Assembly (NCBI GenBank): GCA_963797555.1
Contig: CAWCPV010000004.1
Span: forward strand, 32,001 to 96,000
Origin: an uncultured Gammaproteobacteria bacterium
Lineage (GTDB): Bacteria > Pseudomonadota > Gammaproteobacteria > CAWCPV01
Reading direction: 5' to 3'
Length of the DNA stretch: 64,000 nucleotides
The position numbers were made by a program, and so were the translations under genes. Numbering within the stretch: position 1 is the stretch's first letter; every line of letters starts with the position of its first letter. Below, piece by piece: positions 23,639 through 30,476 of this stretch. A model generated the notes under the pieces. The model saw nothing but the letters and a program-made list of their open reading frames with translations, was not told where the DNA came from and searched no databases.

Positions 23639-25153
23639 GGCTCTTTCGGTAATTGTGTGGATCGTGGTGGTCGAGTAGCATCCGTTCTGAGCAATCGTCT
23701 ATCACAACATCTTGTGGTTGGGCCTGTGGGGTTGTGGGCGAGAGGCCCGCGAGTGTGGGCAACCGGGAGGTTGTCCACACGGTCCTTGGGACGCGGGCCG
23801 CTCCGCAGGACTCGTCCACAAATCCACAGGCCATCAAGGGGGGAGCGCCATGGAGCCAACGCATCTATTCACGACGGCACTGGGCCTCACGGCGCCTTGG
23901 GAAGTCACCGGCGTACGCTTTGACCCCGAGGCTGGGCGCATCGACCTCGAGGTGGCCTTTGCCAAGGGGAGCCGCTTCGCCTGCCCGGCGTGCGGAGTGC
24001 CAGGCCAGCCGGTGCATGATACCCGCAAGCGCAGCTGGCAGCACCTGAGCTTCTTTAAGTCGCGGGCAGACCTGCACGCGCATCTGCCGCGAGTGCGCTG
24101 TGAGAGCTGCGGCAAGACGACTCAGGTCGAGCCGCCGTGGGCGCGCGCACAGAGTGGCTTCACGGCGCTGATGGAGGCACTGGTGGTGACGCTGTGCCAG
24201 GCGATGCCGGTGGCGACCGTCGCCCGGCACCTGGGCGTGGGCGATGAGCGCCTGTGGGGGGTGCTCGAGCACTACGTGGAGGCGGCCCGCGCCCAGGAGG
24301 ACCACTCCCCGGTGCGCGCCGTGGGCCTGGACGAGACCGCCGCCCGGCGTGGGCAGCACTACATCAGCCTGTTCCATGACCTCACGGGCAAACGCCTGCT
24401 GTTCGCCTGCGAGGGCCGCGACCAGAGCACCGTGGCGGCCTTTGCCGCCGACCTCCAGGCGCACGGGGGCGACCCGCAGGCCATCGAGCAGGTGTGCATC
24501 GACCTGTCCGCCGCTTATCTCGCCGGGGTGACCAAGCATCTGCCTAAAGCCACGGTGAGCTTCGATGCCTTCCATGTCATCCAGCTCGCCAACCAGGCCG
24601 TCGATACAGTGCGCCGCGAGGAGGTCAAGACCGAGCCCGCCCTCAGGGGCACCCGCTGGACCTGGCTCAAAGACGCCCACGACTGGACCTGGGAGCAGCT
24701 CACCGACTTTCACTGGCTCTCCCGCGCCCGCCTCAAGACCGCCCGCGCCTGGCGCCTCAAGGAGGCGCTGCGCGATATCTACGCCACGGCCACCACCGCC
24801 GAGCAGGCCGAGACCGCGCTCACGCGCTGGTATAGCTGGGCACGGCGTAGCCGCCTGCAACCCATGAAGCACCTCGCTGCCACTCTGAAAGACCACTGGG
24901 ACGGTGTGCTCGCCACGTTCGACTCCGGCCTCACCAACGGCCGCGCCGAGGGCATCAACTCCCTCATCCAGGCCGCCAAAGCCCGCGCCCGAGGCTACCG
25001 CACCACGCGCTCGCTCATCACCATCGCCTACCTCATCGCGGGCAACCTGGCCCACTTGCCGGCCTCGCCGTTCAACACACGATCTTGTGTCAGACCTCAG
25101 GCAGAGGCTGCCGCAGCGTAAGCATATCTACCCACACGATTCCGGTAAGAACC
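23639..25153 (+). mobile_element. ISL3-family insertion sequence
   Basis: Imperfect IRs GGCTCTTTCGGTAATTGTGTGG and CCCACACGATTCCGGTAAGAACC flanking an intact transposase. Confidence 0.85.
23850..25121 (+). CDS. ISL3 transposase
   Basis: CPACG zinc finger, GLDET, CIDLS, FDAFHV and TNGRAEGINS...ARGYR motifs. Confidence 0.93.
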   Translation: MEPTHLFTTALGLTAPWEVTGVRFDPEAGRIDLEVAFAKGSRFACPACGVPGQPVHDTRKRSWQHLSFFKSRADLHAHLPRVRCESCGKTTQVEPPWARAQSGFTALMEALVVTLCQAMPVATVARHLGVGDERLWGVLEHYVEAARAQEDHSPVRAVGLDETAARRGQHYISLFHDLTGKRLLFACEGRDQSTVAAFAADLQAHGGDPQAIEQVCIDLSAAYLAGVTKHLPKATVSFDAFHVIQLANQAVDTVRREEVKTEPALRGTRWTWLKDAHDWTWEQLTDFHWLSRARLKTARAWRLKEALRDIYATATTAEQAETALTRWYSWARRSRLQPMKHLAATLKDHWDGVLATFDSGLTNGRAEGINSLIQAAKARARGYRTTRSLITIAYLIAGNLAHLPASPFNTRSCVRPQAEAAAA

Positions 25154-25770
25154 CCAAGCATCTGCCTCAGGCTACGGTGAGCTTCGATGCCTTCCACGTG
25201 ATCAAGCTCGCCAACGAGGCGGTCGACGCGGTGCGCCGCGAGGAGGTCAAGACCGAGCCCGCCCTCAGGGGCACCCGCTGGACCTGGCTCAAAGACGCCC
25301 ACGATTGGACCTGGGAGCAGCTCACCGACTTCCACTGGCTCTCCCGCGCCCGCCTCCAGACCGCCCGCGCCTGGCGCCTCAAGGAGGCGCTGCGCGATAT
25401 CTACGCCACGGCCAGCACCCTCGAGCAGGCCGAGAGCGCCCTCGGGCGCTGGTATAGCTGGGCACGGCCGCCTGCAGCCCATGAAACGCCTCGCCACCAC
25501 CCTGAAAGAGCACTGGGACGGCGTGCTCGCCGCGTTCCACTCAGGCCTCACCAACGGCCGCGCCGAGGGCATCAACTCCCTCATCCAGGCCGCCAAGGCT
25601 CGCGCCCGGGGCTACCGCACCACGCACTCGCTCATCACCATCGCCTACCTCATCGCCGGCAATCTCGCCCACCTGCCCGCCTCGCCGTTCAACACACCCG
25701 CTGGTGTCAGAGATCAGGCAGATGCCCCCGCGCCATAGGCATTGCTACCCACACGATTCCGGGAAGAACC
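25154..25770 (+). pseudogene. 3' part of a second, diverged ISL3 copy
   Basis: Closely repeats 24532-25153 with substitutions and a small deletion; has its own right IR CCCACACGATTCCGGGAAGAACC. Confidence 0.88.
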
Positions 25771-25839
25771 CTTTATGTGCGATCCCTTCGCGCGACCCTC
25801 TTTACGGGCTGCGGGCTAACCCGGCGGGCGCTCGGCAGG

Positions 25840-25877
25840 TTGACTTGCCAAGCACGCGCCATATGCTATTCCATATG
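25840..25877 (+). promoter_or_regulatory. Putative TA promoter with paired CATATG operator boxes
   Basis: TTGACT-16 nt-TATGCT; CATATG at 25860 and 25872; ATG only 7 nt after the -10 box. Confidence 0.45.
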
Positions 25878-26997
25878 ATCGTTGTGCTGGACACGGACGT
25901 TATCGTCGCCGCTGTTGTCAGTTCCGACGGGGCATCCCGTTTCCTAGTGTGCCCGGCATGGGCCAAGACTTGTGACCTGAGAGGAGGTCACCGGAGAGAG
26001 TGACGACAACCGTAGTGAAGCGCAAGGGGGAAGCCGCGAGGCCAACCTGAAAGAAGCGCGGAGCAAAGGCACGAGCGCAGGAACACGAACAGGCAGTGAG
26101 GCCGGGTGCGGGCGATGAGCGTGCTAGGGAACGCGAAATCCAACGGTCACCGAAAGACGCATCAGGTAGAGCCTGGCGGCACGGGCCGAGAGTCTTGGCA
26201 CCTTACCCGGGGAGATCTCCCGAGTGAGAGCTTGGGAGAAGTCAGCAGAGGCCATATGAGCGAGGAGACCCTCTGCAATGGGGGGTGTGGAGCGAAGGGC
26301 CGAAGGACCGAGAGACAGGCTAGTCCGAGCAGACGCTGTGGTGACCGCGAAGTCGTCTGAAACCGAGGGCCGTTGCAACTGCGGCAGCCATCCCTTGGGC
26401 GGTGGAGCGAAAGATAGTGGAGCTATCGGACGCGAGACTGGAGGCGGCAAGGAAACCGTGGCGGAAGGAGGATGAATGAAAGCGCTGAATGAGAGCTTGA
26501 TGGAACGGGTAGTCTCCTGGTTCCATCGGATCTCGCGGCCGCCTGATGGCCGCCAGGTCCAACCGCCGGATGCGGAAAACCGCTTGTCCGGTGGTGTGGG
26601 AGGGGTGACGGGCGCAATCCCGTCACCTCGACCCGATCTTCGGGAGATCGGCCTCGGCCGCTTGGCCGCGGCAGCCTCGGTGCCGCTCCTGCTCGAGTAT
26701 GATGCCGTGCTGAAGCGTCCGGACACGCTGCGGCGCGCTGGCGGCACGGTGGAGGACATGGATGTGATCCTTGATCAGCTGGCCGCGACCCTGCAGCCAG
26801 TGCCGATTTGGTATCTGTGGCGACCGATGGTGCGTGACGCCAATGACGATATGGTGCTGGAGGCGGCGGCTAACGGCGCGGCGACGCATCTCGTGACGTT
26901 CAACATTCGCGATTTCGGGGAGGCGCCGCGCCGGTTCGGTGTTGAACTCTGCCGGCCCGCCGATCTGGCGAGGAGATTGCGCGATGGACAAGAGTAA
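25875..26997 (+). CDS. PIN-domain toxin, two exons 25875-25946 and 26638-26997 (143 aa when joined)
   Basis: Joined sequence MIVVLDTDVIVAAVVSSDGASRFL|LREIG...SVPLLLEY...WRPMVRDANDDMVLEAAANGAATHLVTFNIRDF contains all the acidic PIN motifs. Confidence 0.88.
25947..26637 (+). ncRNA. Group IIC intron with the RT ORF deleted (691 nt)
   Basis: 5' GTGTGCCCGGCATGGG; CTTACCCGGGGAGATCT; AGAAGTCAGCAGAGGCCATA; domain V AACCGCCGGATGCGGAAAACCGCTTGTCCGGTGGTGT; domain VI ending ACCCGAT. Confidence 0.92.
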
Positions 26998-27235
26998 CTA
27001 CGCATTGAGTGCGCCGAAGAGCATCCTAGCGGCGGCGCGGCGCGCCGCCAAGCGAGACGGCGTGAGTCTCAACCAGTTCATCAACACCGCTTTGGCCGAG
27101 AAGGTTGCGGCACTGGAAGCCGAAGAGGTGTTCACGCGGCGAGCCGCCCGCGCCGACCGGGCGCGCTTCCTCGATGTGTTAGAGCGGCTCGGGGGTGAGC
27201 CCCCGCAGGCGGGGGACGAACTGGACGCCGGCTGA
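26984..27235 (+). CDS. RHH/HicB-like antitoxin
   Basis: SNYALSAPKSI..AARRAAKRDGVSLNQFINTALAEKV...PPQAGDEL; overlaps the toxin stop; AGGAG RBS. Confidence 0.85.
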   Translation: MDKSNYALSAPKSILAAARRAAKRDGVSLNQFINTALAEKVAALEAEEVFTRRAARADRARFLDVLERLGGEPPQAGDELDAG

Positions 27236-27417
27236 CAGCTCAAGCTGCCAGCCCGCATACCGCGGCTTCCCTGCCAGCCCCTCGTGCCATCCGGTAAGCG
27301 CAGGCGAATGTTCCGCCCCTCCGCCCGATCATCCCCGCCTGCAAACCCCGCCGCTTGTGTATTACCGCCGCGAACAAGAGGAGGCACAGCAGGAGGGGCA
27401 CAGGGTCAGTGCTCGCC

Positions 27418-28533
27418 TTAACCTCTGGCCGGTGTCCTCACATGCGCGGCCGTGCCGTCGGGGTGAGTGGCCGACCCGGCGGCGTGGATGGGGGAATCCT
27501 CCGCCCCGGAGCTGGGCCTGATCGCCGGCGCTCGGTTGCCGCTCATGGCCTGCCGCGAGAAGAAATCCCACGCGATCCGGGTTAGGCTCGGGCCGCGGCT
27601 GTACGCCCAGGCTTTGGGGTCGTCGTCCTCGCCGCTGTAGTAGTGCCCGCAGCCCAGGCTCTCGCACTGGGTCCCCGACACCGCCCCGTCGTAGAACACG
27701 GTCTCGACCACGGTCTTGCCTGCGCGGTCCTCGTAGATGTCGTGCGCGCAGGAGATGCCCTCGGCGGAGCAATCCTCTTCGGCCGCGGGTGTCCGCTCGC
27801 CCCTGAAGACGGTGAGGTGCGCGTCCCGGATCAGCTCTGCGGCCCGGGGGCGCACCACCTCGTCGTTTCGCGAGTTGACGACGAGCAGCGGAATGGTCCT
27901 CCGGTCATCCAGCTCGCGCCGCATGGCATCGACGTAGTCTTGCAAGGGCTTGAAGCGGCCGGAGACGGCTGAATCCGGCCAATCGCCGTAGGGGAGTCCT
28001 TCCACCGAGGCGGCCGCGGCCCAGTATTCGTTGTAGGCAATGGCCGAATCGACCGCCATGCCCCCGCCGGACGAGAAGCCGATGATGTAGCGGCGCTCGG
28101 GGTCGATGCGGTAGTTCTTCTCCACCTGTCGGGCCAGGCGGTGCAGGTCCTCGACCTCGCCCTTGCCCTCGTGGATGTGGGCATCGAACCAGTATCCCCA
28201 GCAGTTCCGACTGCGCGGCTCGGTAAACCGGGTAACGAAGGGGAACACCACGATCACGTCGTTGCGGTCGGCCACCAGGTCCCAGTTCCAGTCGTCGAGC
28301 GCATCGTCGTTGGTCATCGCGCAGCCGTGCAGCGCGAACACCATGGGAACCGGCTTGCTGCCGTCGTAGGCGCGCGGTACATAGACCTTGTATTGCCGCG
28401 TCTGCGAGCCGGGATGCGAGGCACTCTCCAGCGTATAGGCGCGGACCGTCCCGGTCCCGGTCAGGGTGCCGGCATCGGCGCCGGCGACTGCGAACAGCGT
28501 GATGCAGGCGAGCGATAAGGACAGAACCTTCAT
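27418..28533 (-). CDS. Secreted PHB-depolymerase-family esterase
   Basis: Signal peptide, ALHGC oxyanion motif, CWGYW and lipase box GFSSGG. Confidence 0.85.
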   Translation of the reverse strand: MKVLSLSLACITLFAVAGADAGTLTGTGTVRAYTLESASHPGSQTRQYKVYVPRAYDGSKPVPMVFALHGCAMTNDDALDDWNWDLVADRNDVIVVFPFVTRFTEPRSRNCWGYWFDAHIHEGKGEVEDLHRLARQVEKNYRIDPERRYIIGFSSGGGMAVDSAIAYNEYWAAAASVEGLPYGDWPDSAVSGRFKPLQDYVDAMRRELDDRRTIPLLVVNSRNDEVVRPRAAELIRDAHLTVFRGERTPAAEEDCSAEGISCAHDIYEDRAGKTVVETVFYDGAVSGTQCESLGCGHYYSGEDDDPKAWAYSRGPSLTRIAWDFFSRQAMSGNRAPAIRPSSGAEDSPIHAAGSATHPDGTAAHVRTPARG

Positions 28534-28940
28534 CGCTTTCAACGCTCTTCTCCCTTGCTGGTCGTTGGGCAAGACCCACCGGAGGCGCCCGAGAGTCGCT
28601 GTCCCGTTGGGGGAACCCCAGCCGCTTCGGATACTCCCCCTCGAGACTCGGAAAGGGTCGAGCCCACGCCCATGCCCCCTGTCAGGAGCGCAGCCTGCGT
28701 ACCGGGGCGATCTGCCATCTGGCGTTGCACCGGACGAGAGGTCCGTCACGAAGCCCCAAGGATCCGCAACTTGATGGTCACAAGCCCTATCGTTCGGTAA
28801 CGGTCGTTTACCCGGAGGCTGCGAGCGAGCGGTGGTTGACCTTGGGGTTCGTTCCTCACCCCAGGCCACGCCTCCTTTGCTCCCGCCTTCACCCGAGCGT
28901 GCGGCTCGACCGGTGGCGAAATCGCGGACCGGGCGCGCCG

Positions 28941-30476
28941 CTATGCCGCCGCCTCGGCGCCGCCGCCGGCGGTCGTGAACGGCGGGCGGGCGAGCCACAC
29001 CAGGACCAGCAGCGCGACGAATATCCAGCCCGAGAGCCAGAAAAAGTCGTTGGTGGCCAGCATGAATGCCTGCTGCGAAACGGTCCTCGCCAGGGCCGTC
29101 GAGGCGGCGAGGGGATCGAGGCCGAGACTCTGGAGCTGTTGGAGGCCGTGTTGGCTCATCGGGTTGTAAGCCGTGATGTGCTCGGTGAGGCGGTAATCGT
29201 AGAATGCCTGGCGCCGGTCCCATAGGGTGATGCTCAGGGAAACGCCGAAGCTCCCGCCCAGGATGCGCAGGAAGTTGGTGAGACCGGAGGCGCTGGCGAC
29301 CCGGTTCGCCGGCAGCCCGGAGAGCGACATCGCGATGAGCGGGATGAAGAAGCACGGCACGCCCAGGCCGAACACGAGCCGCGGCAGCACGAGCTGGCCG
29401 AAGGCTACGTCGGTGTCGAAGGAGGCATTCCAGAACGAGACCACAGCGAACACCACGAAGGCGAAGCTCACGATCACGCGCAGGTCGACCTTCGACAGGA
29501 TCTGACCCACGATCGGAGACACGACGAGCGCCAGTATCCCGATGAACGCGGCGGCGAGCCCCGCCCAGGTGGCCGTGTAACCCATCTGGGTCTGCAGCCA
29601 GAGCGGGAAGATCACGACGCTTCCGAAGAAGACCAGGTAGCCGAGGCTGATGGCCACCGTGCCGACGGTGAAGTTGATTCCCTTGAACAGGGTCAGGTCC
29701 ACGATGGGGTTGCGTTCGGTGAGTTCCCACACGACGAAGAAGCTCAGCGTGACGAGCGCGATGACGGCGAGCGTGACGATGGCGGGCGAGCCGAACCAGG
29801 CGAGGTCGTTGCCCTTGTCCAGCATGATCTGCAGGCTCGCCACGCCGACGACGAGCAGTCCCAGACCCACGCCATCGACGGGCAGCCGGGCGGTCTGAGT
29901 CTCGCGGCGGCGGAGCAGGCGCCAAGTCACGTAAGCCGCGAGCAGGCCCACTGGCACGTTGATGTAGAAGATCCAGGGCCAACTGTAGTCATCGGTGATC
30001 CAGCCGCCGAGAATGGGGCCGGCCACCGGCGCGACCACCGCGGTCATGCTCCAGATGGCAAGCGCGAGGCCCTTCTTCTCGTCCGGGTAGTTCATGAGCA
30101 GCAGGCTCTGCGACAGGGGAATCATCGGGCCTGCCACGGCGCCTTGCAGCACCCGGAACACCACCAGCGTCGCCAGGCTCCCGGACAGCCCGCACAGCCA
30201 CGAGAACAGGGTGAACCCCAGCACCGACGCCACGAACAGGCGGACCTCCCCGAACCGCTTGCCGAGCCAGCCCGTGAGCGGGAGCGCGATGGCGGTGCTG
30301 ACCGCAAACGAGGTGATGACCCAGGTCCCCTCGTCCGGGCTGACGCCGAGGTCGCCGGAGAGCGTGGGGATGGCCACGTTGGCAATCGAGGTGTCCAGCA
30401 CGTTCATGAAGATCCCCAGCGACACGGACACCGTCAGCAGAACAAGCTTCCCGCCGCGCAGGCAGGTTTCAGCCAT
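28941..30476 (-). CDS. emrB: DHA2 MFS efflux permease
   Basis: FMNVLDTSIANVAIP, WVITSF, GPMIPLSQSLL and WPWIFYINVPVG motifs. Confidence 0.92.
   Translation of the reverse strand: MAETCLRGGKLVLLTVSVSLGIFMNVLDTSIANVAIPTLSGDLGVSPDEGTWVITSFAVSTAIALPLTGWLGKRFGEVRLFVASVLGFTLFSWLCGLSGSLATLVVFRVLQGAVAGPMIPLSQSLLLMNYPDEKKGLALAIWSMTAVVAPVAGPILGGWITDDYSWPWIFYINVPVGLLAAYVTWRLLRRRETQTARLPVDGVGLGLLVVGVASLQIMLDKGNDLAWFGSPAIVTLAVIALVTLSFFVVWELTERNPIVDLTLFKGINFTVGTVAISLGYLVFFGSVVIFPLWLQTQMGYTATWAGLAAAFIGILALVVSPIVGQILSKVDLRVIVSFAFVVFAVVSFWNASFDTDVAFGQLVLPRLVFGLGVPCFFIPLIAMSLSGLPANRVASASGLTNFLRILGGSFGVSLSITLWDRRQAFYDYRLTEHITAYNPMSQHGLQQLQSLGLDPLAASTALARTVSQQAFMLATNDFFWLSGWIFVALLVLVWLARPPFTTAGGGAEAAA

Follow-up and report, generated by a model that had tools for sequence, protein, structure and literature searches.

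A class IIC intron without its reverse transcriptase in a PIN toxin gene: probably an opportunistic insertion

When an intron splits the gene of a toxin, does it make the toxin conditional on splicing, or has it merely landed there? This question is raised by a locus in a 64,000-nucleotide (nt) stretch of DNA from an uncultured Gammaproteobacteria bacterium (contig C4, GenBank CAWCPV010000004.1, positions 32001–96000; hereafter, the window), part of a 5.35-Mb draft assembly of 20 contigs that is 84.6% complete. At this locus, a PIN toxin gene that is followed by a gene for a putative antitoxin is interrupted by a group II intron lacking its reverse transcriptase (RT), an arrangement that a first-pass annotation interpreted as a candidate splicing-gated toxin–antitoxin (TA) system, i.e., a sensor or kill switch. 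Our analysis suggests that the locus is probably the result of a recent, opportunistic retrotransposition of a non-autonomous class IIC intron into the 5′ part of a PIN_3 toxin gene; the first-pass annotation was right on the anatomy, while the purpose it proposed is wrong or at least unsupported.

Both parts of the interrupted gene matched the same protein family profile, PIN_3 (PF13470); exon 2 matched profile positions 32–115 with 37.7 bits (cut-off 27), and exon 1, a short piece, matched positions 2–24 with an E value of 0.026. A search with exon 2 returned 172 homologues, mostly of 141–147 amino acids (aa), intron-free and at most 92% identical; homologues read ...GASRFLLREIGLGR... continuously over the position of the junction. 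One homologue (P0006) also matched TIGR00305, with 29.2 bits against a cut-off of 29.15. The exons joined by script encode a protein of 143 aa, which aligned without a gap at the junction (...GASRFL/LREIGLGR...) with the 94 homologues of 135–160 aa and which keeps all 34 positions conserved at ≥95% in that alignment; one position conserved at ≥90% is changed, conservatively (D46 for E). The earlier reading of an intron placed exactly between codons 24 and 25, excision of which yields a 143-aa PIN protein, was thus confirmed; an alternative start (ATG 25863) would give 147 aa and place the junction after codon 28, and homologues have been annotated from either ATG. Two 120-aa homologues from other assemblies (P0010 and P0035) have a called start at the residue just before the intron junction; such starts might reflect a disruption at this position or close to it.

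The intron lies in sense orientation relative to the PIN gene, and in unspliced mRNA the PIN frame continues for 19 codons of intron sequence before a stop codon at 26001–26003, suggesting, as had been proposed, that full-length toxin would come only from spliced RNA and would need a maturase supplied in trans. The only gene annotated at the locus (P0001) is a 173-aa open reading frame (ORF) of putative function that begins at the start codon of the lost RT and runs into exon 2; its product would be an N-terminally truncated PIN protein without the first strand and the first acidic motif. The frame of this RT stub stays open to the 3′ end of the intron in every copy found in the genome, and that it is in phase with exon 2 represents a one-in-three chance.

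The interrupting element is a group II intron by domain, fold, and terminus tests; its splicing is predicted. Rfam models RF02001 (D1-D4-3) and RF01998 (D1-D4-1) matched at 26030–26201 (81.5 bits, E = 1e-14, gathering score 32) and at 26202–26300 (40.3 bits, gathering score 35), respectively, and RF00029, the model of domains V and VI (DV and DVI), matched at 26561–26637 with 40.0 bits, just reaching its gathering score of 40. For the first two models, the window copy (81.5 and 40.3 bits) compares with 77.9–88.8 and 40.5–41.8 bits in the sister copies described below. A consensus fold of DV and DVI from 12 family members (the window copy and 11 relatives) contains 28 base pairs, four of them with compensatory changes; DVI lies directly before the 3′ splice site, and a GA is unpaired 7–8 nt from the intron end in the folds, so that the preservation of both domains, noted in the first pass, is upheld by the profile match and the expected fold. 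Group II introns begin with GUGYG, end with AY, and carry an unpaired A in DVI; the intron studied here begins with GUGUG at 25947 and ends with ...GAU (ACCCGAT) at 26637. Its ends could also be set independently of any model, as similarity with the three other full-length copies in the genome starts and stops at identical bases.

These three copies are located at C3:202415–203111, C12:28473–29128, and C20:121339–121994, with 93–95% identity to the window copy (the search tool's figure). The C12 and C20 copies represent one event, as they lie inside a 7.4-kb repeat, 98.9% identical, at the ends of both contigs; because these two copies lie in one duplicated region, the four full-length copies correspond to three independent insertions. 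The C12 and C20 copies (loci L002 and L004) are located antisense in a queC remnant that matches Pfam QueC positions 69–147 only and is frame-shifted thereafter, with a delta-carbonic-anhydrase gene and a PTPS/QueD-like gene as neighbours, while the C3 copy is intergenic, between convergent genes; the sister copies thus show no regard for host genes, consistent with opportunism. The window copy and the C12 copy are 98.6% identical over 356 nt and 99.7% identical over 302 nt, and because the base difference from this sister copy is only ~1%, the insertion into the PIN gene appears to be recent. All four copies have the same domain IV remnant, and intron positions 390–691 are identical among them save two bases in the C3 copy. 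The first-pass annotation had proposed to look for a full-length sister intron in the genome. The three sister copies are all RT-less; searches of the assembly with sensitive blastn and with tblastn of the stub yielded no RT-encoding parent intron, only the four copies and two fragments (C5:288168–288334 and C5:225780–225878). The latter fragment, a 5′ piece of the RT-less family, directly abuts an RT fragment that is unrelated to it. Group II debris occurs in two clusters (C5:~205–226 kb and C4:~644–653 kb), which contain several RT or maturase fragments, as well as AGC-type DV copies and one intact IIC intron.

The RT-less form is an established non-autonomous lineage and not a one-off decay product, because the four genome copies have one domain IV remnant and RT-less relatives occur in metagenomes. 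Metagenome contigs were scanned with the first 22 bases of the intron, yielding 119 stretches, of which 80 loci were analysed (an earlier pattern, a 23-mer at the RT start, had given no match). One marsh metagenome contig matches 26115–26583, i.e., across the point of the RT deletion, while a second marsh contig stops matching at 26508 and continues in the RT frame as ILERENLREA, which we read as a typical RT N-terminus; the interpretation of the short frame (Shine–Dalgarno sequence, ATG, and 11 codons) as an RT stub was thereby substantiated. After these 11 codons, the window copy passes into the 3′ portion of domain IV. RT-less relatives of 674–805 nt and intermediates of 1338 nt were found in other metagenomes, including one RT-less relative (L100) that shares 79% identity with the window copy over its entire length. 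An open frame crosses the insertion site in 5 of 15 complete metagenome copies, and none of these frames is PIN-like. One further candidate for a parent, the best match in the class-level genome sample (L051; 91% identity over 81 nt), was rejected, as it consists only of a DVI remnant without an RT. At the first base of the DV bulge (26584), all genome copies have U, as compared to A in 10 of 10 aligned metagenome relatives and in most metagenome contigs aligned to the window; since U-carrying copies have transposed at least three times, this variant is presumably active.

The intron belongs to class IIC, an assignment that is based on its target (a hairpin plus a short intron-binding site 1, IBS1), on a loop (exon-binding site 1, EBS1) that covaries with this target, and on the GsI-IIC-like RT of its full-length relatives. 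A hairpin followed by (T/C)CCTA precedes all three independent insertions in the genome, and the first base of the 3′ exon is C in each case; the 5′ flanks read ACGGG-GCAT-CCCGT TTCCTA at the PIN gene, GCGGC-TAAA-GCCGC TCCTA at the C3 copy, and GTCGGCG-GTCAA-CGCCGAC CCTA at the C12 and C20 copies. The hairpin in the PIN gene, correctly recognised in the first pass, is like those before the other copies and before most relatives, albeit short and two bases further from CCTA than the family norm. Among metagenome relatives, CCTA ends 47 of 66 distinct 5′ flanks, nearly always directly after a stable hairpin. The UAGGGA loop that had been proposed to pair with the exon end TTCCTA was found where it had been placed; it is almost invariant among CCTA-type relatives, and the loop covaries with the flank. 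The EBS1 loop could be located in 14 distinct alignment rows (the pattern failed to locate it in 13 further rows); seven of the 14 combine UAGGGA or UAGGAA with CCTA, one combines UAGGGA with ACTA, two combine ACAUCA with ..TGT, and three (L067, L074, and L086) are unpaired. In a divergent relative (L137), a loop ACAGCG faces a flank CGCTGT with 6 of 6 pairs, representing a compensatory change. Full-length relatives are 1867–1951 nt long and encode an RT of ~410 aa; the 408-aa RT of one of them (L136) scored 411 bits against the RT of GsI-IIC (PDB 6AR1), its best solved relative, 295 bits against 7UIM, 130 bits against LtrA, and 106 bits against the IIB maturase 6ME0. The DV of the window intron contains CGC, which is typical of class IIC, as compared to AGC in the other introns of the genome except for one resident IIC intron on C4. 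The target rule and the RTs of relatives thus bear out the initial classification as an RT-less IIC intron. The insertion site in the PIN gene is a chance mimic of the normal target of the family, created by a few synonymous choices; two intron-free PIN loci from Chromatiaceae (L046 and L047) have neither a clean hairpin nor CCTA at the equivalent place.

Two further patterns of insertion were observed among the metagenome relatives. Many independent insertions (L066, L083, L085, L098, L099, L124, and others) stand after near-identical hairpins of the form GTCGGGCAAC...TTGCCCGAC-CTA; these hairpins look like copies of a palindromic repeat that is dispersed and preferentially targeted by the family. 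In L084, family members are arranged head to tail, one copy following immediately on the 3′ end of another and its DVI hairpin, as though DVI mimicked the target; a head-to-tail joint (26635 to 25945) was also found in one contig of run X1 at a depth of 5.7 and could also be a circle junction.

The gene downstream of the PIN gene had been described as an intact ribbon–helix–helix (RHH) antitoxin gene. The adjacent gene and its conserved pairing with the PIN gene are borne out by comparison. The profile matches behind the RHH label are all below threshold (HicB, 19.5 bits vs. 21; TacA1, 15.2 vs. 21; YlcI_YnfO_N, 25.7 vs. 30); the conserved pairing lends this label further support. In all four Chromatiaceae PIN loci fetched for comparison (L046–L049), the antitoxin gene is located downstream of the PIN gene, with matching gene order and overlap, a near-identical antitoxin, and 78–84% identity in the PIN part; adjacency and conserved pairing suggest that the two genes form a type II TA pair, with toxicity and neutralisation predicted. 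In two of these four loci, from Thiocystis violacea (L048) and Thiocapsa imhoffii (L049), a 5′-truncated PIN gene, with a frame of 112 and 89 aa, respectively, stands beside an intact antitoxin gene; loss of the toxin with retention of the antitoxin is thus common in this TA family.

The first-pass annotation had also proposed to look for the same intron–toxin arrangement in other genomes, and none was found. The 173-aa fused ORF forms a cluster with one member, on one contig, among about 15 billion proteins; none of the four Chromatiaceae PIN loci contains the intron (0/4), and neither a PIN gene nor the antitoxin gene occurs at the analysed metagenome loci that carry the intron family (0/80; 370,943 bases). 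In class-level genomes (60 relatives and a 400-genome class sample, all in other families), only short DV/DVI-like matches to the intron were identified. The PIN homologues from the exon 2 search, up to 92% identical, are intron-free. The joint of the spliced exons (25946 to 26638) was absent from the contigs of runs X1, X4, X7, and X15, in which the exons are thinly covered, by diverged relatives; at most 0.16 of the words sampled from 25700–27300 occur in any one public run, and these data are uninformative on splicing or on an empty site. Largely, then, what was found is the outcome that the first-pass annotation itself had named as speaking against a switch, namely an arrangement unique to this genome alongside intron-free homologues.

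Taken as an opportunistic insertion, the locus may be explained as follows. The PIN allele happens to present the normal target of the family, i.e., a short GC-rich hairpin, CCTA, and then C. On mRNA that retains the intron, ribosomes starting at the PIN gene would terminate after 19 intron codons; full-length toxin would thus require splicing, which in vivo normally needs a cognate maturase, and as no cognate maturase was found in the assembly, the toxin is probably largely silenced. The antitoxin would still be made because it has its own ribosome-binding site, and the toxin gene may be a safe landing place for the intron because loss of the toxin would cost the cell nothing. The dependence of toxin output on splicing would then be a by-product rather than an evolved switch.

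Several observations weigh against this explanation. The ribozyme looks competent, with DV, DVI, and EBS1 intact and Rfam scores comparable to those of the sister copies, and the PIN exons have kept every one of the 34 conserved positions, as would also be expected from continued use through splicing. The same contig encodes, at a distance of 586 kb, an intact IIC RT that might splice the window intron in trans; in addition, in an assembly that is 84.6% complete, the cognate RT may be unassembled. The similarity of the three insertions implies that they were mobilised recently, so that a cognate RT either was available until not long ago or is encoded in the unassembled 15%. With exons free of decay and an apparently intact ribozyme, the intron may splice to some extent, so that toxin output could be conditional; however, the intact exons need no selection as an explanation because the insertion is young.

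In a first alternative, the intron is phenotypically silent, splicing efficiently alone or with the help of a distant resident IIC RT, and the TA pair therefore functions as usual. Among the many RTs of the genome, only one belongs to an intact IIC intron, at C4:~644.2–646.1 kb; its 444-aa RT scored 468 bits against the GsI-IIC RT and 401 bits against TIGR04416, and this resident intron matches the same two Rfam models as the window intron (D1-D4-3 and D1-D4-1) and has the same CGC-type DV, while the other DVs of the genome are AGC-type. RT-less introns, according to the part of a 2015 review that was available (PMC4424553), nearly always coexist with related introns whose proteins possibly act in trans, and the undecayed PIN exons would likewise fit a toxin that remains in use. 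However, identity between the resident RT and the RT of the family amounts to only 44% (43.5% by tblastn, the best match in the genome), and no RT closer than 43.5% was identified by tblastn in the 84.6%-complete assembly; the two ribozymes show no similarity detectable by blastn, their domain IVa regions differ, and the genome copies have U in place of the A of the family at the first DV bulge position. Moreover, folding could be impaired by translating ribosomes, both those that enter domain I for 19 codons and those that start internally and pass through DV and DVI. A silent intron of this kind therefore seems to us unlikely, though worth keeping in view.

We consider it considerably less probable that the locus represents an evolved splicing-gated TA module, in which the intron has been kept to make the toxin conditional on a maturase in trans or on stress, i.e., the sensor or kill switch of the first-pass annotation. 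The sense orientation of the intron, the intact exons with their exact junction, and the preserved ribozyme elements would all fit such a module, as would the retention, in all copies, of a domain IVa remnant with a Shine–Dalgarno sequence and a start codon, domain IVa being the usual region of maturase binding. Host genes that depend on splicing are also known, e.g., the relaxase gene that contains Ll.LtrB (PMC1874635 and PMC7293003, parts available). Against this, the arrangement was seen once and was not found elsewhere (protein clusters, 4 PIN loci, and 80 intron loci); the copy is young and almost identical to its sisters, which are located in a pseudogene remnant and in intergenic DNA, the site obeys the generic target rule of the family, and no cognate RT was identified in the assembly. 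In addition, because the antitoxin gene is located downstream in the same operon, an antitoxin from the same transcript would neutralise the toxin after splicing, which would restore an ordinary buffered TA pair rather than kill the cell.

A more specific version of conditional expression, to which we give little credence, is that the PIN toxin would be expressed only with a cognate IIC maturase, e.g., from an RT-encoding family member on incoming DNA, while the truncated 173-aa PIN protein would titrate the antitoxin as long as the RNA is unspliced; if this were true, a maturase-dependent TA module would report on, or enforce, the presence of a retroelement, to the benefit of the host or of the intron family. 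Finally, an assembly artefact, with a repeat misplaced inside the PIN gene, is very improbable even though the intron is multi-copy in a 20-contig draft and many metagenome contigs break at this repeat, as the junctions are base-exact for a group II intron after a hairpin and CCTA with C as the first exon base, the frame is restored gaplessly on removal, and the PIN copy differs from each of its sisters at bases of its own.

The features of the locus are collected in Table 1. A scan for promoter consensus sequences identified one site (0.2 expected from shuffled sequences), located just upstream of the PIN gene. Further upstream, an ISL3-family gene encodes a transposase of 469 aa and is followed by a partial second copy comprising its last ~620 nt (direct repeats D1/D2, 88–93% identical); this debris ends ~100 nt 5′ of the PIN gene, so that the TA pair adjoins insertion sequence debris. 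Downstream of the antitoxin gene, on the opposite strand (27418–29982), an 854-aa open frame contains an esterase/polyhydroxybutyrate-depolymerase-like domain that is confined to residues ~530–700; its N-terminal part has no Pfam match, and the frame may be an over-long one in GC-rich DNA.

Table 1. Coordinates of features at the intron-containing PIN locus (positions in the window).
Feature	Position	Strand	Basis or remark
ISL3-family transposase gene with tandem partial 3′-end copy	23712..25766	+	Pfam DDE_Tnp_ISL3, 244 bits; fragment, 56 bits
Promoter-like TTGACT-16-TATGCT	25840..25867	+	just 5′ of PIN start; consensus match only
PIN toxin exon 1, 24 codons, first acidic motif VLDTDV	25875..25946	+	PIN_3 profile; colinearity with homologues
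5′-exon hairpin ACGGG-GCAT-CCCGT	25927..25940	+	mimic of IIC target; read directly
IBS1 TTCCTA, core CCTA	25941..25946	+	all genome copies follow (T/C)CCTA
RT-less group IIC intron, 691 nt	25947..26637	+	Rfam matches; ends common to three further genome copies
Domain I–IV core	26030..26300	+	Rfam D1-D4-3 and D1-D4-1
EBS1 loop UAGGGA, stem GCGU/ACGC	26125..26130	+	6-bp pairing with UUCCUA, one G-U
Domain IVa remnant: Shine–Dalgarno AAGGAGG, ATG 26476, 11 codons of lost RT	26465..26508	+	identical in four genome copies
173-aa open frame from RT start codon through domains IV–VI into exon 2	26476..26997	+	ORF list
Domains V (CGC triad, 2-nt bulge) and VI (unpaired GA near 3′ end)	26561..26637	+	RF00029
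PIN toxin exon 2, 119 codons and stop	26638..26997	+	PIN_3; codons end at 26994
Antitoxin gene, 83 aa, RHH-like	26984..27235	+	14-nt overlap with PIN stop; GAGGAG 9 nt 5′ of ATG

By itself, the locus reveals no new regulatory principle. It does provide a clean natural example of a IIC intron entering a coding gene by way of a few synonymous choices that make a hairpin and CCTA, and it documents an RT-less IIC lineage spreading within one genome and diversifying across environmental samples; the split gene would also be a convenient substrate for assessing the trans specificity of IIC maturases, with toxicity as a built-in read-out.

Compared with the class C introns that we take as the reference for this class (B.h.I1, O.i.I1, and GsI-IIC), the window intron and its family share insertion after a DNA hairpin, a short IBS1 and a one-base IBS3, the replacement of AGC by CGC in DV, and, in relatives, tandem insertion after the DVI hairpin as well as, in full-length members, an RT without an endonuclease domain. 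The window copy differs in having no RT and in lying in sense within a protein-coding gene, rather than downstream of a terminator or within an attC site. The part of the 2015 review available (PMC4424553) describes IIC introns as inserting at terminator motifs or attC sites, most bacterial group II introns as lying outside housekeeping genes, and RT-less bacterial introns as rare and mostly immobile. In a literature search that was not exhaustive and that ended before the supplementary lists of PMC8919778, which might contain such a case, no report of a group II intron within the toxin gene of a TA pair came up.

In function, the nearest parallel is Ll.LtrB, located in the ltrB relaxase gene of conjugative elements of Lactococcus lactis, where, according to the excerpts available (PMC1874635, PMC7293003, PMC6003770), splicing controls conjugation; as in the window, a sense intron lies in a gene of a mobile or accessory module and makes the product dependent on splicing. 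Ll.LtrB differs in being a IIA intron with its own maturase and a long, specific homing site, and its association with relaxase genes is recurrent and experimentally tested, whereas the intron–PIN association is not recurrent in the data sets analysed here (a one-member cluster, 0/4, and 0/80). RT-less introns served in trans, such as a cyanobacterial case cited in the available part of PMC4424553, resemble the window intron in the deletion of the RT with retention of the ribozyme and a domain IVa remnant, in several near-identical copies per genome, and in the existence of RT-encoding relatives; the window lineage differs in being IIC, in having diversified as an RT-less form, and in having no closely related RT in the host assembly. 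The host gene itself has its nearest counterparts in the PIN_3/TIGR00305 genes with RHH-like antitoxins of Chromatiaceae, which contain no intron and include two loci with a toxin gene truncated at its 5′ end, but which resemble the split gene in gene order, in overlap, and in 78–84% identity of the PIN protein.

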